A DNA stretch of 50,705 nucleotides from Anaerolineales bacterium (GTDB lineage: Bacteria; Chloroflexota; Anaerolineae; Anaerolineales; UBA4823). The stretch lies in the NCBI GenBank assembly GCA_041556275.1, contig JBFFIU010000001.1:1-50705 (forward strand), written 5' to 3'. Shown here piece after piece: positions 12,621 to 39,969 of this stretch. Position 1 is the first letter of the stretch. Each line of letters begins with the position of its first letter. The notes beneath the pieces were generated by a model. That model did no database searches. It was not told where the DNA came from and saw only the letters and a program-made list of their open reading frames with translations. Both the position numbers and the translations under genes were made by a program.

Positions 12621-12641
12621 TGCTTTTAAGCGAGGGTGCTT

Positions 12642-23427: not shown

Positions 23428-23460
23428 TCGCAACAAAAAGACTGCTTTCCAGTAATATCC

Positions 23461-23489: not shown

Positions 23490-23536
23490 CACTCTAATTA
23501 ATAATTAATGGTGAAAATCGCAATTGGAGATAGTAA

Positions 23537-25246
23537 ATGAAAAGGTTCTGGCAAAGAATAAGGAATACTTTTAAGAATTTCTTCTTTCCTCCACCTGGTT
23601 CTCCTCGCTGGGCGCGAGTATTACCTTATGCTGTTCTGGGTATCTTAACTTTGATCGTGTTGACCGGGGCAGTTTTCGGCTGGGAATACACCAATTCCCC
23701 CCAATTCTGCGGCACAGCTTGCCACACCATGCCACCCGAATTCACAAGTTATCTGATCTCCCCCCATGCCCGCGTTGACTGCGTCGACTGCCATATCGGT
23801 AAGGGCTTTCTCGCCACGCGTGTCTCCCGCAAGGCTGGCGATCTCCGCCACATCGTCGCCACCACCTTCAACACCTACGAGTTTCCCATCCGGGCTCACC
23901 AGCTGCAGCCCGCCCGGGAGACCTGCGAGAAATGCCATTTCCCAGAGAAGTTCTCCGATGACAGTTTGCGTGAGATCAAGCAATTTAGTTCGGATAAAGA
24001 TAATACACCCCTGTCAACATTTTTAGTGCTCAAGACGGGCGGGGGCAGCAAACGCCAGGGGTTGGGGCGCGGCATCCACTGGCATATCGAGAATAAAATC
24101 GAGTACCTGCCCATCGATCCCGAAGAACAGGTGATCCCCTACGTGCTGGTGCATGAAGATGACGGCACGATCACGGAGTACGTGGACGTCGCATTTGATC
24201 TTGATCCCAACGATATCGATCCGGATGACCTGGTGGAGATGGACTGCATCACCTGCCACAACCGCATCACCCACCTGGTGAAGACACCAGAAGCGACGGT
24301 TGATGAGATGCTCAACCGCGGCATCATCGATCCGGAAATCCCCGATATCCGCCGCCAGGCGGTCGAAGCCTACAGCCAGATCTATGAAACCACTGAAATT
24401 GGCCTGGAAGGCATTGCCGGTATCGCCAGTTATTACCAGACATACTACCCTGAATATTACGCTGAAAACCAGGAAAAGGTCGCTGATGCCATCCTTGCCC
24501 TGCAGGATGCCTACGGCCAAAGCGTTTTCCCCGAGCAGAATTCCGACTGGACCACCCATCCCAATAACATTGGACATCAGGATTCTCCTGGATGCTTCCG
24601 CTGCCACGGCGGCACACATTTGAACGCCGAAGGGGAAGCTATTCGCCTGGAGTGCAACCTGTGCCACTCCATCCCGGTTGTCGCCGGTCCGGGTGATTTT
24701 GTATCCGAGATCGAGATCAGCCGCGGGCCGGAGCCCGACTCGCACAAGAATCCAAATTGGATCAGCATGCACCGGGATGTCTTTGACCCGACCTGCTCCA
24801 ACTGCCACACAATCGATAATCCTGGTGGGACGGACAATAGTTCCTTCTGCTCGAATACCGCCTGCCACGGCAGTGTCTATGAGTACGCCGGTTTCGATGC
24901 TCCAGGCCTGCGGGCGATATTGCGCGAACAACTTCCCCCTGAACCAACACCGATTCCACTGGCCGAGGGTGAAGCGATCACCTATCAAACCAGGATTGGT
25001 CCTATGTTCGAAAGCAAGTGCGGGGCATGTCACAGTGAGTCGAACAGCCTGGCAGGATTGGATCTGACAAACTATGAGGGCGCTTTGGAAGGCGGAGAGA
25101 GCGGCGCGGTGATACTCGCCGGTGACCCTGAAAACAGCCGATTGATCATCATTCAAAACAGTGACGAACCCCATTTCGCCCAACTCACAACTGAGGAATT
25201 GGACTTGGTCGTGGATTGGATCGCCAACGGAGCAGCGGAGAATTAA
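23537..25246 (+). CDS. Membrane-anchored NapC/NirT/NrfH-like multiheme cytochrome c (up to 9 hemes) with a C-terminal PSCyt1-like heme domain
   Basis: N-terminal TM helix (VLPYAVLGILTLIVLTGAVFGW). 7 CXXCH (CVDCH, CEKCH, CITCH, CFRCH, CNLCH, CSNCH, CGACH), plus CGTACH (CX3CH) and CSNTACH (CX4CH). Confidence 0.8.
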   Translation: MKRFWQRIRNTFKNFFFPPPGSPRWARVLPYAVLGILTLIVLTGAVFGWEYTNSPQFCGTACHTMPPEFTSYLISPHARVDCVDCHIGKGFLATRVSRKAGDLRHIVATTFNTYEFPIRAHQLQPARETCEKCHFPEKFSDDSLREIKQFSSDKDNTPLSTFLVLKTGGGSKRQGLGRGIHWHIENKIEYLPIDPEEQVIPYVLVHEDDGTITEYVDVAFDLDPNDIDPDDLVEMDCITCHNRITHLVKTPEATVDEMLNRGIIDPEIPDIRRQAVEAYSQIYETTEIGLEGIAGIASYYQTYYPEYYAENQEKVADAILALQDAYGQSVFPEQNSDWTTHPNNIGHQDSPGCFRCHGGTHLNAEGEAIRLECNLCHSIPVVAGPGDFVSEIEISRGPEPDSHKNPNWISMHRDVFDPTCSNCHTIDNPGGTDNSSFCSNTACHGSVYEYAGFDAPGLRAILREQLPPEPTPIPLAEGEAITYQTRIGPMFESKCGACHSESNSLAGLDLTNYEGALEGGESGAVILAGDPENSRLIIIQNSDEPHFAQLTTEELDLVVDWIANGAAEN

Positions 25247-25358
25247 CACGAAAATTTACCAAACTTAAAATTAAAACTATAAATTTGAATATCATTGGCA
25301 ACAAAATAGATTTTTAGCGGTAGTATCATAAGTTGGTAAGCACTAAAAGGAGGCAAGT

Positions 25359-25841
25359 ATGGAAGATAAAGAGCAGCTGAGCCGGCGGAATTTCTTAGCC
25401 ATCGCCACCGGAGCGATCGGGGGATTGATCGGCGTTGTCCTGGCGATTCCTGCAGTGGCTTACGTTGTCGGCCCCGCTTTACAGCGGACAAGAGCAGAGA
25501 ATTGGATCAGGCTCGGACCAACCTCGAAAGTCGAGCTCGGAACTCCCACTCTCTTCAAGGCCGTTGTTGAAAGCCAAACCGGGTGGATCCTGTCCGAGGA
25601 AGAACTCGCAGTTTATGTCCTCACAGAAGACGGGCGTGATTATATCGCTCTATCGAATATCTGCACTCACCTAGGCTGCCGGGTGCGTTGGATTACCGAT
25701 CAAGGTCAATACTTTTGCCCCTGCCACAACGCGGCCTTTGACAAAACTGGTCTGGTTGTATCTGGTCCTCCACCCGAACCTCTTGATCGCTATGAGACAA
25801 AGGTTGAGGATGATCAGTTGTATATCTTGTTGGGAGGTTGA
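25359..25841 (+). CDS. Rieske 2Fe-2S protein with a Tat signal
   Basis: RRNFLAIATGA, CTHLGCRV and CPCHNAAF boxes, AAGGAGG RBS. Confidence 0.9.
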   Translation: MEDKEQLSRRNFLAIATGAIGGLIGVVLAIPAVAYVVGPALQRTRAENWIRLGPTSKVELGTPTLFKAVVESQTGWILSEEELAVYVLTEDGRDYIALSNICTHLGCRVRWITDQGQYFCPCHNAAFDKTGLVVSGPPPEPLDRYETKVEDDQLYILLGG

Positions 25842-25842
25842 A

Positions 25843-26502
25843 ATGAGTGCGAGTTTGGGAAACTGGCTCGATGAACGCATCGGTTGGCGGAAGGTGTGGG
25901 ACGCCATATTCTTGCGTAAGATCCCCAAAGTAAATTGGTTCTATACCCTGGGCAGCGCCACGCTATTCATGGCCGCTTTACAGGGCATTACCGGGATCCT
26001 GCTGACGATCTACTATGTGCCCACACCAGATCACGCATACGACAGCGTGCAGTTTATCACCACCCAGGTGCCGGGCGGGTGGTTTGTGCGCGGCATCCAC
26101 CACTGGGGAGCCAGCGCGATGGTGCTGTTGACCGTCCTGCACATGGTACGTGTCATTATGTACGGTGCATACAAGTACCCCCGCGAGGTGACCTGGTTCA
26201 CCGGCGTGGGATTATTGCTCGTGGTGATGGGCTTTGGTTTCACCGGTTATCTCTTACCTTGGGACCAGAAAGCATATTGGGCAACTGTTGTCGGCACCCG
26301 CATCGCCGGAGTCGCGCCGCTGATCGGGGATCCGATCTTACGAATCATGCGCGGTGGTGAAGATTTATCAGCCGTCACCCTAGCGCGCTTCTTCGGCACC
26401 CATGTCTGGGTCCTGCCAACGATACTGCTGCTGCTGCTTGGGATCCACATGTACCTCGTCATCCGGCTTGGCATCAGCGCTGTTCCTCGCAGGGAGGATT
26501 AG
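25843..26502 (+). CDS. Cytochrome b, N-terminal (b6-like, 4-TM) subunit
   Basis: MSASLGNWLDERIGWRKVW..., WFYTLGSATLF, RGIHHWGASAMV..LH. The ATG at 25843 is 1 nt after the Rieske stop. The track start at 25738 overlaps the Rieske gene. Confidence 0.9.
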   Translation: MSASLGNWLDERIGWRKVWDAIFLRKIPKVNWFYTLGSATLFMAALQGITGILLTIYYVPTPDHAYDSVQFITTQVPGGWFVRGIHHWGASAMVLLTVLHMVRVIMYGAYKYPREVTWFTGVGLLLVVMGFGFTGYLLPWDQKAYWATVVGTRIAGVAPLIGDPILRIMRGGEDLSAVTLARFFGTHVWVLPTILLLLLGIHMYLVIRLGISAVPRRED

Positions 26503-26505
26503 GAT

Positions 26506-28623
26506 ATGGACGAAAAAGAGCGACAAGAATATCTGGAGCAGTATAAAAAAGAGAAGGAAAAGGGCGTTCCCTTTTTCCCGGACATCCTTTTCAAAGATGC
26601 GGTCATCTCCCTGGTGATCTTCATCATCCTGGTGGCTTTAGCCTATTTTATCGGCGCGCCGTTAGAACCACGGGCGGATCCAGCTGATACCACCTACACT
26701 CCCCGACCTGAATGGTACTTCTTGTTCCTATTCCAACTGCTGAAGTACTTCCCGGGAGCATTGGAAGTAGTTGGTGTTTTTATCATCCCGTCAGTAGCAG
26801 TCATCTTATTGATCGCCTTACCCCTGATCGACCGTTCTCCCAAGCGGCATTTCCTACGCAGGCCAGTGATCTTGGTAGCAACGATCCTGAGTGTTATTGG
26901 CGTTCTTTTTCTTACCATTCAATCGAATCGAGAGATACCCCCACCCCTGGAAATCGTCGGGGGCGACCAAACCGCCGTCTTGTATACAGAAAATTGTGCA
27001 CCCTGTCATGGCCCGTCGATGGCTGTCCCAGCAGGTGTCAATTTGCATGACATCATTGCTCAAGGCCAGCATGAGGACATGCCCGGCTGGAGCGGTGATC
27101 TCACTACGGATGAGATCGATGCCCTGGCAGGTTTTATTATCTCTCCAGCGGGAAGCCAGCTCTTCACCGACAATTGCAGCGAATGCCATGAGGTTACTGA
27201 GCTGGTTGCCAGCAACCCGCTCGTCTTGAGAGAATCCATCCAGCGCGGATTGGAATTTGAACCTCATGCGGAGCTGGAAATCCCCGATTGGAGCGAAACG
27301 ATCAGCCAGGAGAACCAGACCAAGCTGCTCAACTTCCTGGTGGCACCGGATGGTCAACGTCTCTTCGCCACCAACTGTGCCCCGTGTCATGGTCAGTCCG
27401 TTGCAGTAGCCGGGGGCGAGGAGCAGTTATTGGAGATCATCAGCCAGGGTGGATTGCACCTGGAAATGCCGCCCTGGAGGGACATGTTGAGCGATAGCGA
27501 TTTGGATCTCCTGGCCAGATATGTTACCGACCCCGCAAGTGTACCTGAAGGCGCGCAGACTTTTGAAAACAACTGTTCTGGCTGCCATGCGAATCGCATT
27601 CCCTCCGCTGGAGATGTTGAGACCGCCCGGCAGATCATCGCTGAAGGTGGCGGACACGAAACTATGCCCGTCTGGGGTGAGGTGCTCACTCCTGAGCAAC
27701 TGGACGCCTTAGTCACTTTCACTCTCGCTGCCGCAGAAGGCACCTCCGTGGAGATCGGTCAAGAAATCTACACGCAAAATTGTGTGCCTTGTCATGGCGA
27801 ATTCGGAGAAGGCGGCCCCAACCCCTCTCGCGCTGGAGATATCATCTTCCCTATCAGCACCGAGGAATACCTGAAAACAAGAGATGACTTCACCGTGCGC
27901 TCAATCATTGCTCAAGGTCAGCCGAATTTCGGCATGTCGCCTTTCGGCAGTAGCTTTGGTGGACCTTTGCAGGACGAAGAAATTGATGCCGTTGTAGCTT
28001 TCATCCGGTCCTGGGAAGCCAATCCGCCGGTGGAATTGCCTCCAGAAATCGTTGTTGCCGTGGAGGATACACTGGCACTGGACACGAAAGATATCTATGA
28101 CCAGCTGTGCTCACAATGCCATGGTTTAAATGGAGAAGGTGGTATTGGACCATCATTTATGGACTCCGAATTTCATGACAACATAACCGACAACCAACTT
28201 TTCGAAGCTATAAATGTTGGACATGAGGCAACCTCAATGATCGGTTGGGGTGATGTTCTAAGTGTTGATCAGATCCAGCAAATGGTCCTGCTTATTCGCC
28301 AATTTAGATCTTCACCGGTTGCAGGTCAACCAACAACTGCGGAAGTATCCTTTTCCGAAGATGTGATGCCTATCTTCGAGGCTGATTGTATTGCTTGCCA
28401 CGGAAATTTTGGGGGCTGGGATGCCAGCAGCTATACCAGTGTGTTAGGCACAGGTAACAACGCTCCAGTGGTCATACCCGGTGATCCAGAGAACAGTCTT
28501 CTCGCTCAAAAGATGACCGACACTCAATCTATTGGACAGATAATGCCTCCAGCCGGATTATTGCCTGATGATGAAGTACAAGTTGTCCTGGATTGGATCG
28601 CAGCAGGTGCACCTGATAATTAA
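26506..28623 (+). CDS. Cytochrome b subunit IV-like domain fused to seven c-type heme domains
   Basis: The N-terminus has PRPEWYFLFLFQLLKYFP (the subunit IV / cyt b C-terminal signature) and 3 TM helices. It is followed by CAPCH, CSECH, CAPCH, CSGCH, CVPCH, CSQCH and CIACH, each in a class-I-like context. Confidence 0.85.
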   Translation: MDEKERQEYLEQYKKEKEKGVPFFPDILFKDAVISLVIFIILVALAYFIGAPLEPRADPADTTYTPRPEWYFLFLFQLLKYFPGALEVVGVFIIPSVAVILLIALPLIDRSPKRHFLRRPVILVATILSVIGVLFLTIQSNREIPPPLEIVGGDQTAVLYTENCAPCHGPSMAVPAGVNLHDIIAQGQHEDMPGWSGDLTTDEIDALAGFIISPAGSQLFTDNCSECHEVTELVASNPLVLRESIQRGLEFEPHAELEIPDWSETISQENQTKLLNFLVAPDGQRLFATNCAPCHGQSVAVAGGEEQLLEIISQGGLHLEMPPWRDMLSDSDLDLLARYVTDPASVPEGAQTFENNCSGCHANRIPSAGDVETARQIIAEGGGHETMPVWGEVLTPEQLDALVTFTLAAAEGTSVEIGQEIYTQNCVPCHGEFGEGGPNPSRAGDIIFPISTEEYLKTRDDFTVRSIIAQGQPNFGMSPFGSSFGGPLQDEEIDAVVAFIRSWEANPPVELPPEIVVAVEDTLALDTKDIYDQLCSQCHGLNGEGGIGPSFMDSEFHDNITDNQLFEAINVGHEATSMIGWGDVLSVDQIQQMVLLIRQFRSSPVAGQPTTAEVSFSEDVMPIFEADCIACHGNFGGWDASSYTSVLGTGNNAPVVIPGDPENSLLAQKMTDTQSIGQIMPPAGLLPDDEVQVVLDWIAAGAPDN

Positions 28624-28707: not shown

Positions 28708-30213
28708 GTGGATTCAAAACGACGTTCTCGGTATTGGCCGATCAATGCCAATCTGCGCGCCAAGGTCACCCTTGGTGTGGTCGTGCCTTTGATCTTGATC
28801 CTTGGCATATTTACCGTAATCGAAGCCTCTCGTCACCGAGAGACCGAACTTTCCAACCTTTCTATACTTGCATCGCAATCCGGTATGGTGATCGAAAGTT
28901 CATTGCGAAACGCAATGTTGCAATCCGATTTCTCTGAAGTTCAAAGGATATTGGATGCGGTCGGTGATGCGGGGGAATTCCGTGTCGTATACTTAATGGA
29001 CAGCGATGGAAAAATAATCTTTGCACCGCATGGTGAGGGTGTTGGCGAGCGGTTAGACAACAAACACCCAACCTGCCAAGCGTGCCATAAGTTGCTGCCT
29101 GATGAGAGACCAAGCAGTGTCGTGGTGACAGATGATGATCAGCGCGTCTTTCGGAGCATGTATCCCATAAGAAATGCACCGGAATGCATGACCTGTCACG
29201 ATCCGGATAAACCGATTATCGGTTTGTTGCTCACCGATATCCCTATTACAAAGGTGGAATCAGCTTTAACAGCAGACTTACGCGAGAATCTGCTGTGGTG
29301 GGTCGGAACGATTTTAGCAACAGTTTTCGTTGTTAATGTTGCCATGAGCAACATTGTTATTAACCGCCTGCAAAAATTAGCCCAGGCTTTGGCGGGCTTT
29401 GGGCAAGACCAATTGAGTCTCCGGCTCCCCGCTGAAGAACCCGATGAAATCGGTCAGCTTTCAGAAGCCTTCAACAATATGAGCCAGCGCATTGAGGTTG
29501 AAGTGGCAGAAAACCGAGCCCTCTCCGATCACCTTTATCTGCAAAGCAAACAGCGTGGTGAACTGCTTAATCATTTGATCACAGCCCAGGAGGATGAGCG
29601 CAAACGTGTGGCTCGCGAACTCCACGATGATCTTGGCCAGGCGTTGGGGGCATTGGCCTTGCAAGCGGAAGCGACTGAAAAACTCATCACCTCCGATCCA
29701 GAACGTGCGATCTACCAATTGAACCTGATTCGAGAGCTGATCACCGAAACAACAGAACGGATGTATGAACTTATATTAGCATTGCGCCCCTCAACACTCG
29801 ACGATCTGGGCTTAGTCGTAGCTCTACAATCCCATGCTGATAGATTTCTATCCGGCAGCGGCATTGCCTTTGAATTAAATGCTGATGGCTTGTCCGATCG
29901 CCTCACGCCCGAATTGGAGACCGCCCTATACCGGATCTACCAGGAAGCCCTGAACAACGTCAGGCGACATTCCGGTGCGAACAGGGTATCCATCACCCTG
30001 ACAATGAACCACGGCTTTCTCGAAAGCGAGATACAGGATGATGGCCGCGGTTTTGATCCTCAGGTGTTAGACTCCAATGGAGACAGCCCGCATGGATTGG
30101 GATTATTGGGTATGAAGGAGCGCGTCAATCAGGCTTGCGGGAATATCGAGATCATCTCTCAACCAGGCATCGGCACACGCATCCATCTGCGTTTCCCAAT
30201 TAATGGAGGTTGA
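28708..30213 (+). CDS. Sensor histidine kinase (HAMP-HisKA_3-HATPase) with two CXXCH motifs in its periplasmic domain
   Basis: TM1 is at about residues 20-38 and TM2 at about 195-217. Between them are HPTCQACHK (nt 29074-29088) and APECMTCHD (nt 29185-29199). H-box RVARELHDDLGQ. GTG start. Confidence 0.8.
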   Translation: MDSKRRSRYWPINANLRAKVTLGVVVPLILILGIFTVIEASRHRETELSNLSILASQSGMVIESSLRNAMLQSDFSEVQRILDAVGDAGEFRVVYLMDSDGKIIFAPHGEGVGERLDNKHPTCQACHKLLPDERPSSVVVTDDDQRVFRSMYPIRNAPECMTCHDPDKPIIGLLLTDIPITKVESALTADLRENLLWWVGTILATVFVVNVAMSNIVINRLQKLAQALAGFGQDQLSLRLPAEEPDEIGQLSEAFNNMSQRIEVEVAENRALSDHLYLQSKQRGELLNHLITAQEDERKRVARELHDDLGQALGALALQAEATEKLITSDPERAIYQLNLIRELITETTERMYELILALRPSTLDDLGLVVALQSHADRFLSGSGIAFELNADGLSDRLTPELETALYRIYQEALNNVRRHSGANRVSITLTMNHGFLESEIQDDGRGFDPQVLDSNGDSPHGLGLLGMKERVNQACGNIEIISQPGIGTRIHLRFPINGG

Positions 30214-30866
30214 TCCTGGCTGATCCAATTCGCGTCCTCATCGCCGATGATCATACAATTGTTCGTTCAGGCGTTCGCCTGCTGCTGGAAGCCGAAGCTG
30301 ATATTGAGGTAGTTGGTGAGGCACTTGATGGTCGCGAGGCATTAAAACTGGCAAAATCACTCCAACCGGATGTAGTATTAATGGATATCACCATGCCAGT
30401 GATGGATGGGCTGGAGGCAACCAAACAGCTCAAAACGCGCTTCCCGCATATCAATGTCCTGGTTTTGACCATGCACCGATCAGACGAATATTTCTTCGAA
30501 ATGCTCAAAGCAGGAGCCTCCGGATACATCCTTAAAGGCGCCAAGACAAACGAACTTATCAATGCAGTCCGGGTTGTCCATCAAGGGGAGGTATTTCTTT
30601 ATCCCACGATGACTCAAAAACTGGTCCAAGGTTATCTTCAGTTAGCAGATTGGGAGAATGAGAGTGAACCTTCTCTGAGCCCGCGAGAAAAGGAGATCTT
30701 TCGATTGTTGGCAGAGGGTTACAGTAATAAAGAGATCGCCGAAAAGCTGGTCATTAGCCCCAGCACTGTTCACTCTCATCGTGGCAATTTAATGGACAAG
30801 CTTGGGCTGAGCAATCGCCGTGAATTAATTCAATACGCTAGGAAGCGTGGTTTGATCCAGAATTAG
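30210..30866 (+). CDS. NarL/LuxR-family response regulator
   Basis: IRVLIADDHTIVRSG, DVVLMDITMPVMDG, LuxR HTH (LSPREKEIFRLLAEGYSNKEIAEKLVISPSTV). The TTG start overlaps the kinase stop (TTGA). Confidence 0.9.
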   Translation: MILADPIRVLIADDHTIVRSGVRLLLEAEADIEVVGEALDGREALKLAKSLQPDVVLMDITMPVMDGLEATKQLKTRFPHINVLVLTMHRSDEYFFEMLKAGASGYILKGAKTNELINAVRVVHQGEVFLYPTMTQKLVQGYLQLADWENESEPSLSPREKEIFRLLAEGYSNKEIAEKLVISPSTVHSHRGNLMDKLGLSNRRELIQYARKRGLIQN

Positions 30867-31014: not shown

Positions 31015-31353
31015 GTGTTGGCTACCCACCGGGTGTACGTGATTTGGACCAACCCCCTGTTTCACGACTCATTGCTTCAATTATTGGCTCACACTGATAT
31101 CAAATGGGTCGGTGCAGCCTCGGATTTCACCATTGCAGTTGAAGAGATATCTCGCCTTCACCCGGACACAATTCTTATCGAAGAACAGGATGGTGAGACG
31201 ACCACAACTACTTTTATGGAAATCGTGGATAAGTTTCAATGGAATTTGCGCGTGGTAGGGGTCAGTCTCAGTGACAATCAATTGAGTGTCTACCAACACG
31301 CGCAACAGACGGTGGGGCAACCAGAGGATCTGATTCGCTTGATTATTGAATGA
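31015..31353 (+). CDS. Hypothetical protein, possibly a degenerate (pseudo-)receiver domain
   Basis: 112 aa with a GTG start. The alternating beta/alpha pattern resembles CheY-like receivers, but the acidic pocket is missing (VYVIWTNPLF for xDDxx, TILIEEQDG for the phospho-Asp strand). Confidence 0.35.
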   Translation: MLATHRVYVIWTNPLFHDSLLQLLAHTDIKWVGAASDFTIAVEEISRLHPDTILIEEQDGETTTTTFMEIVDKFQWNLRVVGVSLSDNQLSVYQHAQQTVGQPEDLIRLIIE

Positions 31354-31489
31354 TAGACCTCAGAATGTTCCTCCGAATAATAATAGTTCAATGTCCAATT
31401 TAATTATGCCGAGGAGGTTCACTATGTAAACTAACAAATAAAATACGATGGATTGGGGTTACCGAATGATTGATTTGAGGAGGTGCAGC

Positions 31490-32824
31490 ATGCTTCGTAA
31501 ATTCACTTTTATAACAATGCTTATTTTTGCTACACTGCTGTTAGCGGCTTGTGCTGGTGATCAAGGTCCCGAGGGGCCTGAGGGACCACCAGGACCCGCA
31601 GGTCCAGCTGGAGCTCAAGGCCCAGAAGGTTCACCAGGAACCGAGTTGACTGAAGATCAACTTGCGGCACTGGAAACTGCAGGCAATTTGGCTGGCATTC
31701 AGTTTCCGACTTTAGATGAGGTGCGTAGAGGTTGTCCGGCCTGCCATGTACTGGTAGATGAGGAAACTGGACAATATACACTTCCATATGAGGCTCACGA
31801 AAGGGCTGAAGCTCGTGGAGAAGAACATCCGGAGACTGCTCCAGATGGAACCTCGCTCGCAGCAACAGAGGAAGTTAATGTCACAACTTGCTTGCAATGT
31901 CACGCAGCCGGCACCGGTGATCGGGCTGGAAAAGGGGTCATTGCCCCACTGGCATTGCGTGATATCGTCCATCCTGCACACATGTACAGCCAGTGGTTTA
32001 AACTTCACTACGGCGGTAACTGCTTCACTTGCCACAATGTAGATGGTGAAGGCAATTGGGAATTGCTTACCGAAAAAGTTGAAGTGAATGAGAAAGGCGT
32101 CCCTGACCCGGATGCAGTGCCGATCCCGGGCGCCATTGCGATTGGTGGAGCACCATCATTATCAGGTTCAGTGGCCGCTGGCGGGAGATTGTACGACAAA
32201 TGGTGGAAAGAAGTTGGAGTAGACGAACCCAGTACGGACCAACCCTTGTGGGCTTCTCAAACCACCAACACCCGCAGTGGTGGCGACACCTGGCGTTGCA
32301 AAGAATGTCACGGGTGGGATTACAAGGGTGCCGACGGCGCTTATGGTTCTGGTTCCCACTTCACTGGTTTCCCTGGTGTGTTTGATGTCCAATCAGAATC
32401 CTTTGACACGATCGTAGCTTTTATTGATGGAAGCGCTAATTCGGATCACGACTTTTCAGCAATGGGTGATGAGGCTATCAATGACCTGGCGGCTTTTCTT
32501 TCTACTGGTCTTGCCGACTACGCACCCCTAATAAATGCCGAGACGAAAGCAGCCAACGGTGGCGACACCGCAAATGGCGAGTCTCTCTATGCTGCTTGTT
32601 CTGCTTGCCATGGAGAAGATGGGCGCTTGATCAATTTCGGAGATGACGACGATCCAACATACGTTGGTACTGTCGCCTTAGATAACCCTTGGGAGTTTCT
32701 GCATAAGGTACGCGCTGGTCAGCCTGGTACTGCTATGCCAGCCTCCCTTGATGCGAACTGGAGTATGGATGACTTGCTAGACCTGTTAGCTTTCTCCCAG
32801 ACTCTACCAACCGAGGTACCTTAA
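31490..32824 (+). CDS. Pentaheme cytochrome c lipoprotein with an N-terminal collagen-like Gly-X-Y stalk
   Basis: The ATG at 31490 follows a GAGGAGG RBS. Lipobox LAAC, 10 GXY triplets, and CPACH, CLQCH, CFTCH, CKECH, CSACH. Confidence 0.8.
   Translation: MLRKFTFITMLIFATLLLAACAGDQGPEGPEGPPGPAGPAGAQGPEGSPGTELTEDQLAALETAGNLAGIQFPTLDEVRRGCPACHVLVDEETGQYTLPYEAHERAEARGEEHPETAPDGTSLAATEEVNVTTCLQCHAAGTGDRAGKGVIAPLALRDIVHPAHMYSQWFKLHYGGNCFTCHNVDGEGNWELLTEKVEVNEKGVPDPDAVPIPGAIAIGGAPSLSGSVAAGGRLYDKWWKEVGVDEPSTDQPLWASQTTNTRSGGDTWRCKECHGWDYKGADGAYGSGSHFTGFPGVFDVQSESFDTIVAFIDGSANSDHDFSAMGDEAINDLAAFLSTGLADYAPLINAETKAANGGDTANGESLYAACSACHGEDGRLINFGDDDDPTYVGTVALDNPWEFLHKVRAGQPGTAMPASLDANWSMDDLLDLLAFSQTLPTEVP
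31556..31645 (+). repeat. Collagen-like triplet repeat (10 x Gly-X-Y), coding
   Basis: GDQGPEGPEGPPGPAGPAGAQGPEGSPGTE. Confidence 0.8.
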
Positions 32825-32847: not shown

Positions 32848-32877
32848 AAGGGCTGGAGGGAAAACCTTCCAGCCCTT
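32848..32877 (+). terminator. Hairpin between the pentaheme gene and actA (terminator or attenuator)
   Basis: AAGGGCTGGAGG / CCTTCCAGCCCTT with one bulge. There is no strong U-run. Confidence 0.35.
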
Positions 32878-32908: not shown

Positions 32909-33424
32909 ATGAACCGTCTCTGGTTGATCGTAATTTTTATCTTGATCGTAACGGGTGTCATCGTTGGGGTGATTCTCACCCGAAATCAGGTTTATGCAGC
33001 TCCCGAACAACCGATTGCATACAGCCATGAAGTCCATGTCCAGGCAGGCATCCAATGCCTTTACTGCCATCCTAGCGCGCTACAGTCGCCCATAGCAGGT
33101 ATTCCATCCGTGCAGAAATGCATGGGCTGTCACAATGTAATTCAAACAGAAAGCCCAGAAATACAGCAGGTTAGCAGCTACTATGAGAGTGGGCAGCCAA
33201 TTCCTTGGGAGAGGATCAACAGACAACCGGATTTTATCTATTTTAGTCATCAACCTCATCTTGGTGCGGGACTTAATTGTGAAACCTGCCACGGTGATGT
33301 TGGTCAAATGGATGTAACTCAACAAACCGTGAAGATGGATATGGGTTGGTGTCTGGATTGCCATTTACAACAACCTGAAGAAAAAGTAGGTCGTCTCGCT
33401 GACTGCCTTACTTGCCACAAGTGA
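32909..33424 (+). CDS. actA: Alternative Complex III subunit ActA (pentaheme cytochrome c)
   Basis: N-terminal TM helix. CLYCH, CMGCH, CETCH, CLDCH, CLTCH. Lies directly upstream of the actB-like genes. Confidence 0.85.
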   Translation: MNRLWLIVIFILIVTGVIVGVILTRNQVYAAPEQPIAYSHEVHVQAGIQCLYCHPSALQSPIAGIPSVQKCMGCHNVIQTESPEIQQVSSYYESGQPIPWERINRQPDFIYFSHQPHLGAGLNCETCHGDVGQMDVTQQTVKMDMGWCLDCHLQQPEEKVGRLADCLTCHK

Positions 33425-33431: not shown

Positions 33432-35645
33432 ATGACAAAGAAGATTTCCCGACGTGATTTCTTGAAGATTAGCGGCGGAGCTGCAGTAGTTACCGGCGCC
33501 GCTCATGGCGCTCGAAACCTCATAATTGAGCCATACGTGAATCCTCCTGAAGAAGATTTGCCAGGTAAGGCTACCTGGTATGCCAGCACATGCCGCCAAT
33601 GTCCCGCAGGATGCGGAATCATTGTGCGGGTGATCAATGGAAGGGCCAAGAAAATTGAAGGTAATCCTCTGCACCCCCTCAATCAGGGAAAGCTGTGCGC
33701 CCGTGGGCAAGCTGGGCTCCAGGCACTTTATAACCCTGACCGGCTTAAAAATGCAGTCATTCAGACCGGAGGGCGCGGGTCTCTGATGTTCGAACCGTTA
33801 TATTGGTCGGAAGCATTGGATATCTTTACTGAAAAGCTCAACAGCCTGAGTGATCCAAGTCGAGTTGCATTTTTAGGCGGGTTGATGCCCTCGCATTTAT
33901 TTGCGTTGAGTACACGTTTGCTTAATGCATTGGGGGCGCAAGTCCCCATAATCTACGATCTGCACGCGGCACTTGAGGGTCGCAGATCTATGGTTCAACT
34001 CTCGGAAGATTTATTTGGCGCTCCTGAGTTACCCGTTTACGATCTAGCTAATGCCGAGGTTGTCTTCTCGTTTGGCGCAAATTTTCTAGAAACTTGGATG
34101 TCTCCCGTCTCCCAAACCTTTGCATTTGGAACTATGCGTCAAGGTCAATTCGGGGGTCGTGGATTTCTTGTCCAATTCGAACCGCGCCTATCAGCGACAG
34201 GCGCTTCTGCTGACGAATGGATTCCGCTAAAGCCGGGGGCCGAGGGTTACGTCGCTTTAGCGCTTGGCCGTATTATCGTCGAAGAGCGTTTAGGTAATAT
34301 CGGCAGTCATCGCCCTTATGCTGGAATGTATCAGAATATCGATGTGCGTGAGATGGCCAATGCCAGCCAAGTCCCGTTCGAAGATCTCAACCGATTAGCT
34401 CGCATTTTTGCCGATGCGGATCAGGCTATTGCTATTCCAGGTGGTGGGGTGGCCGGACAATACAATGGGCAGGCGAGTATGCTGGCAATTCAAGCTCTCA
34501 ATTTACTCGTCGCTCAAATCGGAAGGGTGGGAGGTGTCTTCTTATCGCAACCTGGTCCCACTGCTGCATTTCGCCAGAATCCAAAAACAGCCTCATTTGA
34601 ACAGGTTATGGACTTAGTGGAACGCATGAAATCCGGTGACATCGACCTTCTGTTGATCTATGGCACGAATCCAGTATTTGAAATGCCTGCCTCAGCAGGA
34701 TTCGCGGATGCTATCGCACGCGTACCATACGTCATCTCTTTCAGTCCATTTGTCGATGAGACTGCTGTCCGCTCTGACCTGATTTTGCCTGACCATTCTT
34801 ATCTGGAGTCTTGGGGCTACGAAGTACCAGCACCAGGAGCTGGGAAACCGATAGTATCCAGTCAACAACCAGTCGTACGACCAATTTACGACACGCGTTC
34901 GACCGGAGAGGTCTTCCTGGAGCTTGCTGACCGTTTGGGTGGCGAAGTGGCAGCTGCCCTGCCTTGGATAGATGAGATGGCTTTCATGCAAGAGCTAGCG
35001 GTGGAATTGCATGGCTCCAGCCTAGGAGCGTACGATGCCAAGACCCAAAGTAGTTTCTGGGCTCTCTGGCGACAATATGGTGGGTGGTGGACCGAAAAGG
35101 AAATCCCGCGCGAGCCTGAACTCACCACAATCGTCCAAGAGGCTTTACCGGTTTCTGAGCCTGTCTTTGATGGTGAAGAGGAGACATTCCCATATCACCT
35201 TCATCCATATCCATCAATTGTGCTCTCAGATGGACGGGGCGCAAACCAACCCTGGTTGCAGGGAGCGCCAGATCCAATGACCACTGCCAGTTGGGGAACT
35301 TGGGTGGAATTAAATCCTGAGACTGCCAGATCGTTAGGTGTACACGATAATGATATTGTGCGTGTGATCTCTCCAAATGGTGAATTGGAAGCTCCCGTTG
35401 TCATTTATCCTGGAATTCGACCTGATGTTATAGCTATCCCTGTTGGGCAAGGGCACAGTCAATGTGGTCGTTTTGCCCAACGAAGGGGAAGCAATCCAAT
35501 CGCTTTGTTATCTCCACTAACTGACCCAGACACTGGTTCGCTTGCATGGGGGGCTACTCGGGTGAAGATCGAGCCGACTGGGCATAAAAAAATCCTGCCA
35601 AGACATGAGAGTCTGGCTGGGGAAGGACGAGAATCTATTGGCTAA
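33432..35645 (+). CDS. actB: ACIII subunit ActB1 (molybdopterin-oxidoreductase-like domain, Tat signal)
   Basis: RRDFLKISGGAAVVTGA. N-terminal Cys cluster CRQCPAGCG...CARG. Size and context are as in the PsrA/ActB family. Confidence 0.85.
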   Translation: MTKKISRRDFLKISGGAAVVTGAAHGARNLIIEPYVNPPEEDLPGKATWYASTCRQCPAGCGIIVRVINGRAKKIEGNPLHPLNQGKLCARGQAGLQALYNPDRLKNAVIQTGGRGSLMFEPLYWSEALDIFTEKLNSLSDPSRVAFLGGLMPSHLFALSTRLLNALGAQVPIIYDLHAALEGRRSMVQLSEDLFGAPELPVYDLANAEVVFSFGANFLETWMSPVSQTFAFGTMRQGQFGGRGFLVQFEPRLSATGASADEWIPLKPGAEGYVALALGRIIVEERLGNIGSHRPYAGMYQNIDVREMANASQVPFEDLNRLARIFADADQAIAIPGGGVAGQYNGQASMLAIQALNLLVAQIGRVGGVFLSQPGPTAAFRQNPKTASFEQVMDLVERMKSGDIDLLLIYGTNPVFEMPASAGFADAIARVPYVISFSPFVDETAVRSDLILPDHSYLESWGYEVPAPGAGKPIVSSQQPVVRPIYDTRSTGEVFLELADRLGGEVAAALPWIDEMAFMQELAVELHGSSLGAYDAKTQSSFWALWRQYGGWWTEKEIPREPELTTIVQEALPVSEPVFDGEEETFPYHLHPYPSIVLSDGRGANQPWLQGAPDPMTTASWGTWVELNPETARSLGVHDNDIVRVISPNGELEAPVVIYPGIRPDVIAIPVGQGHSQCGRFAQRRGSNPIALLSPLTDPDTGSLAWGATRVKIEPTGHKKILPRHESLAGEGRESIG

Positions 35646-36342
35646 CACAGAACCCCGGTGGGCCATGATCGTGGATCTTGACCGCTGTACGGGATGCCAG
35701 GCATGTGTAATCGCCTGCCAGGCGGAAAACAACGTACCCACGGTTGGCGAGTCTGAAACAGAAAAAGGGCGCTGGTTACATTGGATCCATATTGAACGTT
35801 ATTGGGAAGGCGAATACCCAAATATTAAGGCACGCTTTATGCCGGTCATGTGCCAGCAATGCAGTGAGGCTCCTTGCGAACCAGTCTGCCCAGTGTTTGC
35901 TACCTATCATACGCCGGAAGGTTTAAACGCCCAAATCTACAACCGCTGCATTGGCACCCGCTTCTGCGGCAGTGCTTGCCCATACAAAGTGCGTACTTAC
36001 AATTGGTTTCGCCCCGAATTCCCGGAGCCATTGAACGAGCAGCTCAACCCAGATGTGACCATCCGCTCTCGAGGTCTGATAGAGAAGTGCACATTTTGTA
36101 TTCAGCGCATTCGAAGAATTGAAATCGAGGCTCATGCCCAGGGACGAGAACCGGCTGATGGCGAGATTCAACCCGCCTGCGTGCAAACCTGTCCACCTGG
36201 TGCGTTGGTTTTTGGTGACTTGAATGATCCAAACAGTCGGGTGAGCCAATTGGAGACGAGCCATCGATCCTTCAAACTCCTGGGAGAGCTGGGCACCAGC
36301 CCAGGGGTGATCTACCTAAAAGGAGGCGAAACGAATGTCTGA
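35605..36342 (+). CDS. actB: ACIII subunit ActB2 (4Fe-4S ferredoxin-type, PsrB/NrfC-like)
   Basis: RWAMIVDLDRCTGCQACVIACQAENN, CQQCSEAPCEPVCP, CIGTRFCGSACPYKV. The start is uncertain: ATG 35605 overlaps actB1 by 41 nt, and the alternative is ATG 35665. Confidence 0.8.
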   Translation: MRVWLGKDENLLANTEPRWAMIVDLDRCTGCQACVIACQAENNVPTVGESETEKGRWLHWIHIERYWEGEYPNIKARFMPVMCQQCSEAPCEPVCPVFATYHTPEGLNAQIYNRCIGTRFCGSACPYKVRTYNWFRPEFPEPLNEQLNPDVTIRSRGLIEKCTFCIQRIRRIEIEAHAQGREPADGEIQPACVQTCPPGALVFGDLNDPNSRVSQLETSHRSFKLLGELGTSPGVIYLKGGETNV

Positions 36343-37756
36343 ATCAGAGGTGCTGGCATACCCTGAGGAGAGCGGCGCTGCAGAATTCGAAGATCGCCTA
36401 CTCCTCTCCGAACGTACGAGTTCAGAAATTAATCAAGCCGTGCTTGAACCAATGTTTCGATCAAGCTGGCGATTTTGGTTGCTGGTAGCATTTCTAAGCG
36501 TATTAGTCTTATGGGGACTTTTTGCCTGGGGATACCTAATTTATTGGGGCATGGGGACGGCGGGCATCAATCGACCAGTCTACTGGGGGTTTTTCATCGC
36601 CACCTTCGTTTTTTGGGTCGGTATCAGCCATGCAGGGACGATGATCTCCGCGGTATTGCGCTTATTGAAAGCAGATTGGCGGCGACCAATTACGCGAGGT
36701 GCAGAAGCAATGACTGCATTTGCGCTGATGATGGCTGGATTATTTCCCTTTATCCATCTCGGGAGAGTATGGAAGTTTTATTGGATGATTCCTTATCCCA
36801 ACAACCGCTTTATGTGGCCAAATTTCCAATCGCCTCTAATGTGGGATATGGTTGCCATCTTTACCTATTTCATCGGTTCTACCCTTTATCTCTACCTGGC
36901 TCTGATCCCGGACCTTGCGATGGCGCGCGACCACACCAGCAGATGGCGCCAGAAATTGTATCGGATATTATCTCTTGGCTGGCGCGGCACGGAGGCAGAG
37001 TGGCATAAACTCCATCGTGCCTTAAGCATCTTTTCAATTGCCATCATCCCGATCTTCTTATCTGTGCACTCGATCGTCTCCTGGGATTTTGCAGTAACGA
37101 TTCAACCCCGCTGGCACAGCACGATATTCGCTCCCTATTTTGTGGTTGGCGCCATCTATTCCGGATTGGCAGCCTTAGCCTGTATCCTGGTTATTGTGCG
37201 CAAGGGAATGCAACTGCAGGAATTCCTGCGTGCAGAGCACTTCGACGCTTTGGGGAAATTAGTTTTGGTGGCAGGTATGGCCTGGACTTACTTCTGGTTC
37301 GCAGGGTTTATTGTTGAATGGTATGGCAATGAACCAGTGATTAGAGAATTAATCCATGAGGAGGTTTTCGGAGATCTGGCCCCACTTTTCTATCTACAAA
37401 TGTCTGCGAACTTGATCCCGATTGTGCTGCTTGTTTTCAAGAAGGTCCGTGTTACACCCTGGCTCTTGCTTCTCACAACGTTATTAGTGAATGTTGGTAT
37501 GTTTACTGAGCGTGTATTAATCGTTGTTGGTAGTTTGCAGCGCAACTTCATGCCTTTCAATTGGGGCGACTATAGCCCAACCTGGGTAGAAGTGAGCATT
37601 GTCGTGATGACTTTCGCTGGGTTTGCGCTTCTATATACAATATTTTCCCGTGTCTTCCCATACGTACCAGTATGGGAGATCAAGGAGGGGCGCCTGCGCT
37701 ATACGGTGCGCCGTATCGGTCGTTTGTTGGTGCCAACTGCCGCCGAGATCGAATAG
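36335..37756 (+). CDS. actC: ACIII subunit ActC (NrfD/PsrC-like quinol-interacting membrane subunit)
   Basis: 473 aa with about 10 TM helices, placed after the Fe-S subunit. Confidence 0.85.
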   Translation: MSESEVLAYPEESGAAEFEDRLLLSERTSSEINQAVLEPMFRSSWRFWLLVAFLSVLVLWGLFAWGYLIYWGMGTAGINRPVYWGFFIATFVFWVGISHAGTMISAVLRLLKADWRRPITRGAEAMTAFALMMAGLFPFIHLGRVWKFYWMIPYPNNRFMWPNFQSPLMWDMVAIFTYFIGSTLYLYLALIPDLAMARDHTSRWRQKLYRILSLGWRGTEAEWHKLHRALSIFSIAIIPIFLSVHSIVSWDFAVTIQPRWHSTIFAPYFVVGAIYSGLAALACILVIVRKGMQLQEFLRAEHFDALGKLVLVAGMAWTYFWFAGFIVEWYGNEPVIRELIHEEVFGDLAPLFYLQMSANLIPIVLLVFKKVRVTPWLLLLTTLLVNVGMFTERVLIVVGSLQRNFMPFNWGDYSPTWVEVSIVVMTFAGFALLYTIFSRVFPYVPVWEIKEGRLRYTVRRIGRLLVPTAAEIE

Positions 37757-37882: not shown

Positions 37883-38410
37883 ATGAACAATCAAATGATC
37901 ACTCTGATCGCTCTATTTGATGAGAGCATTGACACTGCCAAGGCTGTAGATGAACTTCACAGCATAGGTATTTCAGAAGAGAAGATGGTCGTCATGACGG
38001 ATGTACCCTACCCAGAACGGGCATTGGGAAGGACCCGGGAGTGGCTGACCTTACCCTATATCGTGGTCGCCGGAGCAGTTTTGGGACTGCTAATTGGCTT
38101 GTTTTTATCTGCCATCACTCCCCACCTCTATCGTCTGGATGTGGGCGGTCACCCTCCGGTTGGCTTTCCACCAGCAGCTGTGATCACATTCGTCTTTACG
38201 ATGATGGCGATCATTGTCTCTACTTTCCTCGGTGTTCTTTGGGAAATGGACTTCCCCCGCTTTGGTCCAGCCCCCTATCACAAAGCAGTCACCGATGGCA
38301 AACTCGGGGTGCTCTTAGAATTCCCTTCTGAATTGCAGGAAAAAGTTAATACCGTCCTTAAGGCCAATAAGGCTGACTACATCGGGGAACCGGAGATGAT
38401 TTCGCTATGA
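37883..38410 (+). CDS. actD: ACIII subunit ActD (DUF3341-like)
   Basis: 175 aa. A soluble N-terminal domain (LIALFDESIDTAKAVDEL) followed by 2 TM helices. Called mainly from its position in the cluster. Confidence 0.7.
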   Translation: MNNQMITLIALFDESIDTAKAVDELHSIGISEEKMVVMTDVPYPERALGRTREWLTLPYIVVAGAVLGLLIGLFLSAITPHLYRLDVGGHPPVGFPPAAVITFVFTMMAIIVSTFLGVLWEMDFPRFGPAPYHKAVTDGKLGVLLEFPSELQEKVNTVLKANKADYIGEPEMISL

Positions 38411-38913
38411 ACCCTCGTTTGCAGCGTGGATTACTCATCATTGCGATTATCCTCACGCCGTTCATCATTGGCCTCTTTTTCACCTTCGAAATTTTGAAAA
38501 TCCCGTATACCACAGACATGCAAAATCAGATTTCGATAAACTACCAAGAGAGTCCCCGCATATTGCCACCCGATGGAGCAGTGCCAGTACAAGGTCTGGC
38601 GGTAATCCCCGATGAATTTCCAGTTAATCCCATTTCAATGGATGAGGTCTCTTTGCAGCGGGGCAAAGTCCTTTTTGATCTACATTGTCTGGTTTGTCAT
38701 GGAGAAAATGGCCACGGAGACGGACCACTGGCGCATCACTTCACGCGCACGCCAGAAAACCTGACCAGCTCGCAAATAACCGCCGAATTTGATGGTGCCG
38801 TCTATTTGACCATCCGAAATGGTTTTGGTCAGATGCCAGCTTTATATGAAAACCTAACGCCCCACGAAACCTGGGATGTGGTGAATTACCTTCACACGCT
38901 ACCGGTGAGGTGA
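38407..38913 (+). CDS. actE: ACIII subunit ActE (monoheme cytochrome c)
   Basis: N-terminal TM helix, CLVCHGENGHGDG, ATGA overlap with actD. Confidence 0.7.
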   Translation: MNPRLQRGLLIIAIILTPFIIGLFFTFEILKIPYTTDMQNQISINYQESPRILPPDGAVPVQGLAVIPDEFPVNPISMDEVSLQRGKVLFDLHCLVCHGENGHGDGPLAHHFTRTPENLTSSQITAEFDGAVYLTIRNGFGQMPALYENLTPHETWDVVNYLHTLPVR

Positions 38914-38922: not shown

Positions 38923-39969
38923 ATGATAAACAAATATTTAAAATTTACCCCCATCATTATTTTGATTTTGACCGCCTGTACTGCGCCGCAAAGTCTCCCT
39001 TCGGGTCCTACACCGATCCCAACTCTGGTACCCGCGACTGAACCCAGCAGCCCTCTGACTGAAACAGCAGTACCGTCATTCCCGATCCAGAGCTACCCTG
39101 CGCGGCTGCCTTCAGCCGAGTTGGGTCAGCCACTTTACCAGACTCACTGTGCCAGCTGCCATGGTGAGGATGGCAATGGAGTGGTTCCTGGCGCACGCAA
39201 TTTTGGCGACCTGGATTATATGCGAGGCGAAACCCCGGCTTCCTTCTATACTGCGGTCACTGAAGGTCGCGGTGAAATGCAAGGATTTCTCGACACATTG
39301 ACCTCGGACGAGCTCTGGGACGTGGTATTTTACGTCTGGCGATTTTCCACCGATGCTGAAAAACTTGCACTTGGACAGCATCTTTATGATGATAATTGCG
39401 TGGCTTGCCACGGGGAAGATGGTACTGGTGAAGTTCTGGGTGCTGCCGATTTCTCTGACCTGCGGGTTGTCGATGACCAGGCTCCTCGAGATTTCTACTT
39501 GGTCACCACACAAGGTAAAGGCTCAATGCCAGCCTGGCAGGGTCGGCTCTCACAGGATGAACGCTGGGCGGTGATCGACTATGTACGCACTTTCTCTTAT
39601 GACCCATCCCTACCAGGGGAGGCTGCTGCTCAAACTCCACCGACCGCCACTCCTCAGGAAATTGTTTGTGATCCAAAATATCTGACCCAAACCAATCCTT
39701 TTGATTGGGATGATTCAGCTGCTATTTCAGCTGGTGAGGTGATTTACAGTCAATCTTGTGCCATGTGTCATGGTGTTGATGGCTCTGGCGGGATTCCAGG
39801 CGCTCCTGATTACACAGATTCCGCAGTTGCAGATGATTTGCGTGCCAATAGTAGTGAAAAACTTTGTATTGTTGCAGATGGCAAAGAATCAATGCCTGGT
39901 TGGAAAGAGACACTCACCGATGAGCAAATGTGGGAGCTTTTAACTTATCTTTACTCATTCCGAAAATAA
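38923..39969 (+). CDS. Triheme (three class-I domains) cytochrome c lipoprotein
   Basis: Lipobox LTAC. CASCHGEDGNG, CVACHGEDGTG, CAMCHGVDGSG. Confidence 0.8.
   Translation: MINKYLKFTPIIILILTACTAPQSLPSGPTPIPTLVPATEPSSPLTETAVPSFPIQSYPARLPSAELGQPLYQTHCASCHGEDGNGVVPGARNFGDLDYMRGETPASFYTAVTEGRGEMQGFLDTLTSDELWDVVFYVWRFSTDAEKLALGQHLYDDNCVACHGEDGTGEVLGAADFSDLRVVDDQAPRDFYLVTTQGKGSMPAWQGRLSQDERWAVIDYVRTFSYDPSLPGEAAAQTPPTATPQEIVCDPKYLTQTNPFDWDDSAAISAGEVIYSQSCAMCHGVDGSGGIPGAPDYTDSAVADDLRANSSEKLCIVADGKESMPGWKETLTDEQMWELLTYLYSFRK

Follow-up and report, generated by a model that had tools for sequence, protein, structure and literature searches.

The stretch of DNA analysed here (the window) comprises 50,705 nucleotides (nt), positions 1 to 50,705 of contig JBFFIU010000001.1 from an Anaerolineales bacterium of the Chloroflexota (assembly GCA_041556275.1). 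On its forward strand, directly upstream of the genes for Alternative Complex III (ACIII), lies a gene for a lipoprotein with five heme-binding motifs, in which an uninterrupted collagen-like Gly-X-Y (GXY) tract separates the predicted lipid anchor from the hemes. An earlier note, made by a model from the sequence alone, had drawn attention to this pentaheme protein and its stalk.

Architecture of the stalked pentaheme cytochrome

The gene and the parts of its product are as follows.

31477-31483, + strand: Shine-Dalgarno sequence GAGGAGG, 6 nt 5′ of the ATG at 31490, read from the sequence
31490-32824, + strand: stalked pentaheme cytochrome gene, an open reading frame (ORF) of 444 amino acids (aa)
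31490-31552, + strand: signal peptide and lipobox LAAC; Cys21 (nt 31550-31552) is the predicted lipid-modified first mature residue
31556-31645, + strand: collagen-like stalk (Gly-X-Y)10, residues 23-52
31646-31696, + strand: neck helix LTEDQLAALETAGNLAG, residues 53-69
31697-32155, + strand: triheme module, residues 70-222; CXXCH motifs at nt 31733-31747, 31889-31903 and 32021-32035
32156-32821, + strand: diheme module, residues 223-444; CXXCH motifs at nt 32297-32311 and 32597-32611
32848-32877, + strand: stem-loop with a 13-bp stem, between the pentaheme gene and actA

More than 2,000 homologues were found, of which the best 120 were inspected. Orthologues are taken here as the 74 N-terminally complete sequences that share the first heme motif, and residue conservation was scored on 49 aligned orthologues. 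The close relatives come from Anaerolineales or Chloroflexota metagenome-assembled genomes (MAGs).

The ORF finder extends the gene to an ATG at 31448. We took the ATG at 31490 as the start because it follows the Shine-Dalgarno sequence, because the orthologues all start at the equivalent 'M-x-R/K-K' and because the same ATG is used by independent gene calls on four public contigs with an identical protein. Such contigs occur in the datasets ERZ23498493, ERZ23880187 and SRR22923164. No Met occurs between residues 10 and 165, and a start 3′ of the GXY tract is therefore not possible. The N-terminus consists of a basic stretch, a hydrophobic core and LLAAC, which fits the lipobox pattern [LVI][ASTVI][GAS]C, and Cys21 is invariant; judged by its sequence, the protein is of the bacterial lipoprotein type. 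All five CXXCH motifs (CPACH, residues 82-86; CLQCH, 134-138; CFTCH, 178-182; CKECH, 270-274; CSACH, 370-374) are likewise invariant, and the eleven Cys of the protein comprise that of the lipobox and ten that bind heme. Together with the signal peptide and a Ccm system I cluster at 10283-19623, the five motifs mark it as a multiheme c-type cytochrome. The earlier note's account of a pentaheme lipoprotein with ten GXY triplets at nt 31556-31645, and with its start upstream of them, agrees with these results in coordinates and motifs. It had missed that two separable modules, one triheme and one diheme, are fused in the protein, and that 'thiosulfate dehydrogenase' is the name given to many homologues.

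A single Ala separates Cys21 from the first triplet, after which the tract (GDQ GPE GPE GPP GPA GPA GAQ GPE GSP GTE) runs without a break. An unbroken GXY run was present in 74/74 orthologues (8-18 triplets, mode 9-10), filling the whole segment from Cys to helix in every one and almost always starting at Cys+2. Among these sequences Pro occupies X in 61% of triplets, Gln, Ala and Glu are the main residues at Y, and stalk length varies by whole triplets only. The orthologues use the Gly codons GGA, GGT, GGC and GGG about equally, and Tandem Repeats Finder reported no DNA tandem repeat at the tract in the window. Since the Gly codons vary synonymously, the periodicity is selected at the protein level. 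By our own arithmetic, ten Gly at strict three-residue spacing would arise by chance with a probability of ~1e-10 per start position (Gly at ~10%).

The uninterrupted (Gly-X-Y)n repeat is that of collagen-like proteins. The tract gave weak NCBIfam and Pfam matches to SclB, Lcl and Collagen; the match to Pfam Collagen PF01391 (E 1.9e-4, 21.6 bits) stays below the gathering cut-off of 27.2 because the tract covers about half of the 60-position model. The main argument for collagen geometry is Gly at every third position, which suggests such a geometry because a plain flexible linker needs no Gly there. The AlphaFold2 model of the stalk has block means of the predicted local distance difference test (pLDDT) of 63, 52 and 44 across residues 21-50, with residues 38-52 below 50. 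In the neck helix, L53, Q57 and L67 are invariant and L61 and A64 nearly so. AlphaFold2 places this helix at residues 55-69 with low confidence, and positions 53, 57, 61, 64 and 67 form an amphipathic stripe without a clean heptad pattern.

Two further observations concern the DNA of the tract. In Bellilinea-like genomes, pure (Gly-Pro-Ala)5-8 stalks are encoded (locus L015, 5875-8172; L017, 3375-5679; L037, 6001-6687), and the copy number differs between an adjacent full-length gene and triheme-only paralogue, which suggests that stalk length evolves there by triplet-repeat slippage. Antisense shadow ORFs overlie GXY-coding DNA, e.g. at 31530-31865 and 22081-22452 on the minus strand and in the same way at several loci; these should not be annotated as genes.

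The triheme module is rare, with 93 clusters among 1.84 billion representative proteins in an exhaustive phmmer search. Five conserved His (103, 113, 161, 164 and 173) are candidate distal ligands, which suggests that its hemes are bis-His ligated. Its Pfam matches to Cytochrome_C7 and to MtrC domain II/IV were all below cut-off (Mtrc-MtrF_II-IV_dom, 24.3 bits against a cut-off of 30), so that it does not count as MtrC/OmcA-type, and a profile search of the PDB found no solved relative (best E 0.13). Some relatives present the module at the N-terminus on a lipobox or a transmembrane (TM) helix with a GXY stalk, and others on Pro/Thr-rich or acidic linkers. Wall anchoring by SLH domains was confirmed with Pfam in the five proteins checked (E 7e-18 to 1e-11), and there are also relatives with beta-sandwich domains of the Big_7 or DUF11 type or with C-terminal TM anchors. 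This variety of spacers (SLH, Ig-like, Pro/Thr, GXY) shows that what the relatives all require is distance from the membrane. In one distant relative, P0204, the triheme part is joined to a molybdenum domain of the sulfite-oxidase type (Oxidored_molyb, E 3.6e-24), suggesting that the module can act as the electron outlet of an enzyme. Stand-alone stalked triheme proteins were found at L015, L017, L037, L047, L049 and L050; these lipobox-GXY-helix-triheme proteins of ~216-228 aa adjoin the full-length gene in Bellilinea-like genomes.

The diheme module carries the marks 'GGRLYDKWW...WRCKECHGWDY...CxxCH...PGTxMP' (here CSACH...PGTAMP) and matches Pfam Cytochrome_CBB3 (E 3.8e-13). Searched against the PDB, its profile found CcoP/cytochrome cy (E 2.2e-10) and actinobacterial QcrC (E 1e-7). 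Met416 is invariant and is the likely sixth ligand of heme 5, a class-I His/Met signature. For heme 4 the candidates are the nearly invariant His290 and the invariant His320; Met325 is not conserved, and heme 4 probably has no Met ligand. The AlphaFold2 model of this module reached a pLDDT of 77.6 and a predicted TM-score (pTM) of 0.78, with the heme-4 region below 50. The protein thus has the anchor, linker, CXXCH motif and Met sixth ligand of a membrane-tethered class-I carrier.

The diheme module was found in at least 576 genomic stretches, mostly from Chloroflexota and also from some Acidimicrobiia, Rokubacteria-type and Methylomirabilis MAGs, and many homologues contain it 1-3 times per protein. 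Paralogues made up of this module only usually have a lipobox and a Pro/Thr/Glu-rich linker about as long as the GXY stalk, or sometimes a C-terminal linker and TM helix.

Gene neighbourhood and a probable link to quinol oxidation

The genes on either side of the pentaheme cytochrome gene are listed below.

28708-30213, + strand: sensor histidine kinase (HAMP, HisKA_3, HATPase_c; Pfam), first gene of the conserved unit
30210-30866, + strand: NarL/LuxR-type response regulator (Response_reg and GerE), paired with the kinase
31015-31353, + strand: p112, a 112-aa orphan receiver-like protein, always between the regulator and the cytochrome gene
32909-33424, + strand: actA, pentaheme, 171 aa (Pfam, heme count)
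33432-35645, + strand: actB1 (Pfam)
35605-36342, + strand: actB2, overlapping actB1 (Pfam)
36335-37756, + strand: actC (Pfam)
37883-38410, + strand: actD (Pfam)
38407-38913, + strand: actE (Pfam)
38923-39969, + strand: triheme class-I lipoprotein with a Pro/Thr-rich linker, following actE

Synteny was compared across 11 distinct genomes, in which the orthologues are 65-86% identical and the flanks beyond the cluster differ. The tightest conserved unit comprises the heme-sensor kinase, the NarL-type regulator, p112 and the pentaheme gene; kinase, regulator and p112 lie directly 5′ of the pentaheme gene wherever upstream sequence was available. The Cache-like extracytoplasmic domain of the kinase (sCache_3_2, E 6e-5; Tll0287-like, E 4e-3) contains CXXCH at residues 123 and 160, and the kinase is a probable heme-c redox or gas sensor. 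The similarities of p112 are weak (NarL receiver in the PDB, E 0.019; Pfam Response_reg, E 0.11).

On the 3′ side, actA directly follows the orthologue in 7/11 genomes. In an eighth (L009) a frameshifted GXY cytochrome gene (11692-12762) stands between the two, bringing the genomes with ACIII 3′ of the orthologue to 8/11 overall; this fragment is related to the 6-heme protein of the window and is either a pseudogene or an assembly error. Two Bellilinea-like genomes (L015 and L017) have a stalked triheme gene and a Rieske/cytochrome b complex in place of ACIII, and a closed genome (CP070785.1, L012) has rpsG-fusA-tuf there and neither complex. The link to ACIII drawn in the earlier note consequently holds as adjacency to actA in most genomes and fails as a general rule. 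Because ACIII adjacency is not universal and the upstream unit is invariant, the pentaheme gene is better described, from its genomic context, as a putative partner of quinol:cytochrome c oxidoreductases generally than of ACIII specifically. In dozens of loci, diheme-only proteins likewise have ACIII, Rieske/cytochrome b or another ActB/ActC-like complex as a neighbour.

The spacer of 84 nt before actA contains the hairpin at 32848-32877 that the earlier note had described, and its 13-bp stem was recovered (-29.6 kcal/mol, computed for a 91-nt spacer; z = -4.66). Hairpins of different sequence occur at the same position at L005, L008, L009 and L010, and it is therefore the structure that is conserved. 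A consensus scan called no intrinsic terminator at the hairpin since a T-run is lacking, and a canonical terminator was rejected on that ground. Only 31 nt separate the end of the hairpin from the start of actA at 32909, too short for a separate promoter, and this spacer length favours read-through into actA. The hairpin may attenuate transcription or stabilise the transcript 3′ end.

From 5′ to 3′, the window contains an 8-heme cytochrome gene, a NapC/NirT-like gene, a Rieske/cytochrome b set, the kinase, regulator, p112 and pentaheme genes, and then actA-B1-B2-C-D-E, the triheme lipoprotein gene and a GXY-stalked 6-heme cytochrome gene. Its ACIII is a variant with a minimal ActA, a split ActB, a single NrfD-like subunit, no ActF and the extra triheme gene. 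The genes upstream of the kinase form a second respiratory module (22168-28623, + strand), which encodes a GXY-stalked 8-heme lipoprotein, a NapC/NirT-like 7-heme protein, Rieske protein and cytochrome b, together with a cytochrome b C-terminal subunit fused to seven CXXCH motifs. Further upstream, two genes interrupt the Ccm cluster (10283-19623, - strand; CcmA/B/C, CcmE/F/H and a thioredoxin-like protein), one encoding a 23S rRNA intervening-sequence protein (12711-13100) and the other a diheme lipoprotein of 670 aa whose linker is Pro-rich (13148-15160). The gene at 4911-6770 (+ strand) joins an N-terminal DsbA/thioredoxin-like domain to an NhaA-type Na+/H+ antiporter.

GXY stalks on other cytochromes

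There are three GXY tracts in the window, all on multiheme lipoproteins. Those other than the pentaheme protein are the following.

start 22168, + strand: GXY-stalked 8-heme lipoprotein of the second respiratory module
40284-41378 (start also given as 40314), + strand: GXY-stalked 6-heme cytochrome with 12 triplets

BLASTP of the heme part of the pentaheme protein against the other two found no significant similarity (best E 0.20, 0.25 and 0.03), as expected from the earlier note, which saw no evident similarity to the 22168 and 40314 proteins. This lack of similarity argues against recent duplication, and close paralogy of the three was rejected at the level of BLASTP. All three match the same Pfam families weakly (c7/MtrC-like), and a remote relationship through generic c7/MtrC-like heme packing is possible. 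Two class-I-type cytochrome lipoproteins in the window (13148-15160 and 38923-39969) have Pro-rich linkers, and a substrate-binding lipoprotein (43613-44629) has an ordinary short one.

Across ~900 kb of fetched loci, every genuine ORF whose N-terminus has 6 or more GXY triplets in a run encodes at least two hemes (34/34), and these ORFs comprise 2-, 3-, 5-, 6-, 8- and 10-heme proteins. None of 37 heme-free lipoproteins had a GXY run (Fisher p = 1.3e-7), in a sample biased towards cytochrome loci. Single diheme-module lipoproteins with 8-21 GXY triplets occur at L044 (5722-6690), L063 (3051-3971), L064 (5161-6045), L078 (5818-6687) and L085 (1333-2325), and come from other Chloroflexota, including Dehalococcoidia MAGs. 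In these a short helix of the type PSEAQLKALISEQLRG always follows the stalk, and on sequence grounds they are a second, independent stalk-plus-neck combination. A stalk exclusive to the triheme module was rejected, as diheme, 6-, 8- and 10-heme proteins are also stalked. The closed genome CP070764.1 (L005) encodes two tandem GXY-stalked 6-heme paralogues (18835-19926 and 20382-21350).

A probable tethered electron carrier and the alternatives

With a probability of roughly 0.6, we read the pentaheme protein as a c-type cytochrome that is tethered to the cytoplasmic membrane and relays electrons on its outer side, with quinol:cytochrome c oxidoreductases as its partners and the GXY tract as a rigid spacer. 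Chloroflexota are usually considered to have a single membrane, and a cell of that kind would not retain a soluble cytochrome, which would account for the lipid anchor. The GXY tract would set the height of the heme domains above the membrane: taking 0.286 nm per residue, the usual rise in collagen, a triple-helical stalk would be ~8.6 nm long here and 7-15 nm across the orthologues. The strict Gly periodicity suggests that the tract trimerises the protein; three chains would form a collagen triple helix, for which the neck helix may be the nucleus, and the trimer would be a 15-heme 'bouquet'. The five-heme chain may take electrons from the periplasmic hemes of ACIII or a bc-type complex, with terminal reductases, oxidases or further cytochromes of the envelope as recipients, and the adjacent heme-based two-component system probably sets expression.

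The closest known counterparts of such a carrier are Rhodobacter cytochrome cy, Bacillus c551 (CccB) and the CcoP/QcrC domains, which likewise combine an N-terminal anchor, a long linker and a class-I heme domain with Met; CcoP/cy and QcrC are, moreover, related in sequence to the C-terminal diheme module, as the PDB matches show. Carriers of the cy/CccB type and the pentaheme gene are both tied to quinol:cytochrome c oxidoreductases, in the present case by genomic association. However, the former have one or two hemes and an Ala/Pro-rich flexible arm, whereas the protein described here has five hemes, a rare triheme module without a solved relative and a strict collagen-type GXY repeat.

In Chloroflexus, the membrane-tethered electron acceptors of ACIII are auracyanins, which are blue-copper proteins. 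They resemble the pentaheme protein in being tethered periplasmic redox proteins with a long linker that serve a Chloroflexota ACIII, a role proposed here for the pentaheme protein, and differ in their copper centre and in having no collagen-like repeat; the two would not be expected to be related in sequence. Thermincola OcwA and the S-layer cytochrome of Carboxydothermus ferrireducens are surface multiheme cytochromes used for extracellular electron transfer by single-membrane bacteria. Here too multiheme c-type cytochromes lie beyond the membrane, and triheme relatives of the present protein carry SLH domains. The likeness goes as far as the weak similarity to MtrC domain II/IV, with no significant sequence or fold match; OcwA-type proteins are positioned in the wall, whereas the pentaheme protein is predicted to be lipid-anchored in the membrane and is tied to ACIII/bc complexes, not to known metal-reduction gene sets.

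Among collagen-stalked proteins, Scl1/Scl2 (Streptococcus), BclA (Bacillus), Lcl (Legionella), the collectins, C1q and ColQ share the uninterrupted Gly-X-Y repeat with Pro at X and a polar or charged Y. They too place the repeat between an anchoring end and globular heads, and the short helix adjacent to the tract resembles the collectin neck. These proteins have ~20 to ~80 triplets, against 10 here. Their heads are adhesins or lectins and they are displayed by LPXTG or secretion; the present heads are heme domains on a lipoprotein Cys, with a putative triple helix.

Several points weigh against the tethered-carrier interpretation. The single-membrane envelope of the source organism is an assumption from general knowledge, and the window contains no terminal oxidase or reductase. 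The partner could be a bc-type complex, both complexes or neither, given the Rieske/cytochrome b complex in the two Bellilinea-like genomes and the lack of either complex in CP070785.1. The full-length AlphaFold2 monomer model is poor (mean pLDDT 56; the C-terminal part of the stalk and the whole triheme module below 50), and Foldseek searches of the PDB with the full-length and diheme models found nothing better than E 0.02. Ten triplets without hydroxyproline would barely suffice for a helix in isolation, and in paralogues the tethering is evidently achieved by Pro/Thr linkers.

The last two points lead to the alternative that survives best, namely that the GXY tract is an extended monomeric polyproline-II-type linker, equivalent to Pro/Thr linkers, with no triple helix or trimer. 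We regard this as possible, if on balance improbable. It is in keeping with the Pro/Thr/Glu-rich linkers that paralogous diheme lipoproteins carry at the same position, with the many interchangeable spacers of the triheme relatives, with the shortness of a tract of 10 triplets and with the Pfam Collagen score of 21.6 bits, below the cut-off; bacteria also lack prolyl hydroxylation. However, a plain linker sits poorly with a register unbroken in 74/74 orthologues, with length changes by whole triplets and with synonymous drift of the Gly codons. Pro at X and Gln, Glu or Ala at Y are typical of bacterial collagen-like proteins, and in two cytochrome families that are not related to each other the tract leads into a conserved helix, much like the trimerising neck of collectins.

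That the protein is instead a stoichiometric extra subunit of ACIII, replacing ActF or extending the ActA/ActE heme wire, we think unlikely. The gene does lie immediately 5′ of actA in 7/11 genomes, with an 84-nt spacer that leaves no room for a promoter after the hairpin, and the ACIII of the window, with its 171-aa ActA, lacks ActF and has an additional triheme gene. Against this, the orthologue adjoins Rieske/cytochrome b at L015 and L017 and neither complex at L012, and co-occurrence with act genes is not obligate. The two modules exist as separate genes in other genomes, and a long rigid stalk would fit a reaching carrier better than a docked subunit. No Act family matched the protein in Pfam or NCBIfam, by BLASTP the ActA-E orthologues in the fetched loci are separate ORFs distinct from the pentaheme orthologues, and the only similarity to a solved ACIII is a local cytochrome-c-type match to 6btm ActA (E 0.004), which falls short of homology to ActA to ActH. 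To our knowledge, none of the named subunits ActA to ActH resembles the pentaheme protein.

Annotation by the Joint Genome Institute (JGI) names many homologues 'thiosulfate dehydrogenase', and TsdA structures are the nominal top Foldseek matches (E 0.02, TM-score ~0.25). A TsdA-like enzyme is nevertheless very improbable. The catalytic heme of TsdA has His/Cys axial ligation, and the pentaheme protein has no Cys beyond those of the lipobox and the heme motifs. The Foldseek matches are not significant, a single-sequence phmmer search of the PDB did not find TsdA, and the diheme profile reached it at E 3e-3 over just 25 residues around one CXXCH. For want of the Cys ligand and of any significant match in sequence or fold, this identity was rejected, which corrects a label propagated across a large family of diheme-module proteins, the same at least 576 genomic stretches.

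Lastly, an annotation artefact, with the start 3′ of the tract or the tract a non-coding or low-complexity DNA repeat, can for practical purposes be set aside given the Shine-Dalgarno sequence before 31490, the lack of Met at residues 10-165, the lack of a tandem DNA repeat, the conservation of signal peptide, lipobox and GXY in all orthologues, and the export, hence signal peptide, that the heme domains need.

Beyond the tethered carrier itself, a bolder proposal is that collagen triple helices trimerise multiheme cytochromes into rigid, lipid-anchored redox bouquets ~7-15 nm in height, bridging oxidoreductases (ACIII or bc-type) and wall or S-layer cytochromes such as the SLH-anchored triheme relatives. 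We offer this tentatively and hold it to be rather doubtful. At least four heme-domain families without common origin appear to have taken up the stalk separately (the 8-heme protein at 22168, the 5-heme at 31490, the 6-heme at 40314 and the single diheme-module proteins of other Chloroflexota). If true, the proposal would amount to a previously unrecognised structural route for respiratory electrons across the single-membrane Chloroflexota envelope, possibly to or from extracellular acceptors or donors.

A full-text literature search with cytochrome and multiheme terms found nothing that links collagen-like or Gly-X-Y repeats to cytochromes. Multiheme cytochromes abound in Anaerolineae, in which extracellular electron transfer is suspected (bioRxiv 10.1101/2021.08.23.457424). 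The presence of ACIII in Anaerolineae and their wealth of multiheme proteins are already known; the collagen-stalked carrier design was not found described in the literature searched.

Tethered cytochromes are the standard solution where there is no closed periplasm, and how the reach of such carriers is set has been little studied. The present data describe a lineage-wide, strictly conserved collagen-like rod between the predicted lipid anchor and the hemes, found on several unrelated cytochromes and, in the sampled DNA, on no heme-free lipoprotein. If the rod is a triple helix, it would imply obligate trimeric heme assemblies and would add a respiratory role to the bacterial collagens, which are known mainly as adhesins and as spore or phage fibres. 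It would, moreover, offer a concrete and testable account of how, in Anaerolineae, ACIII or bc complexes are connected electrically with the cell exterior.

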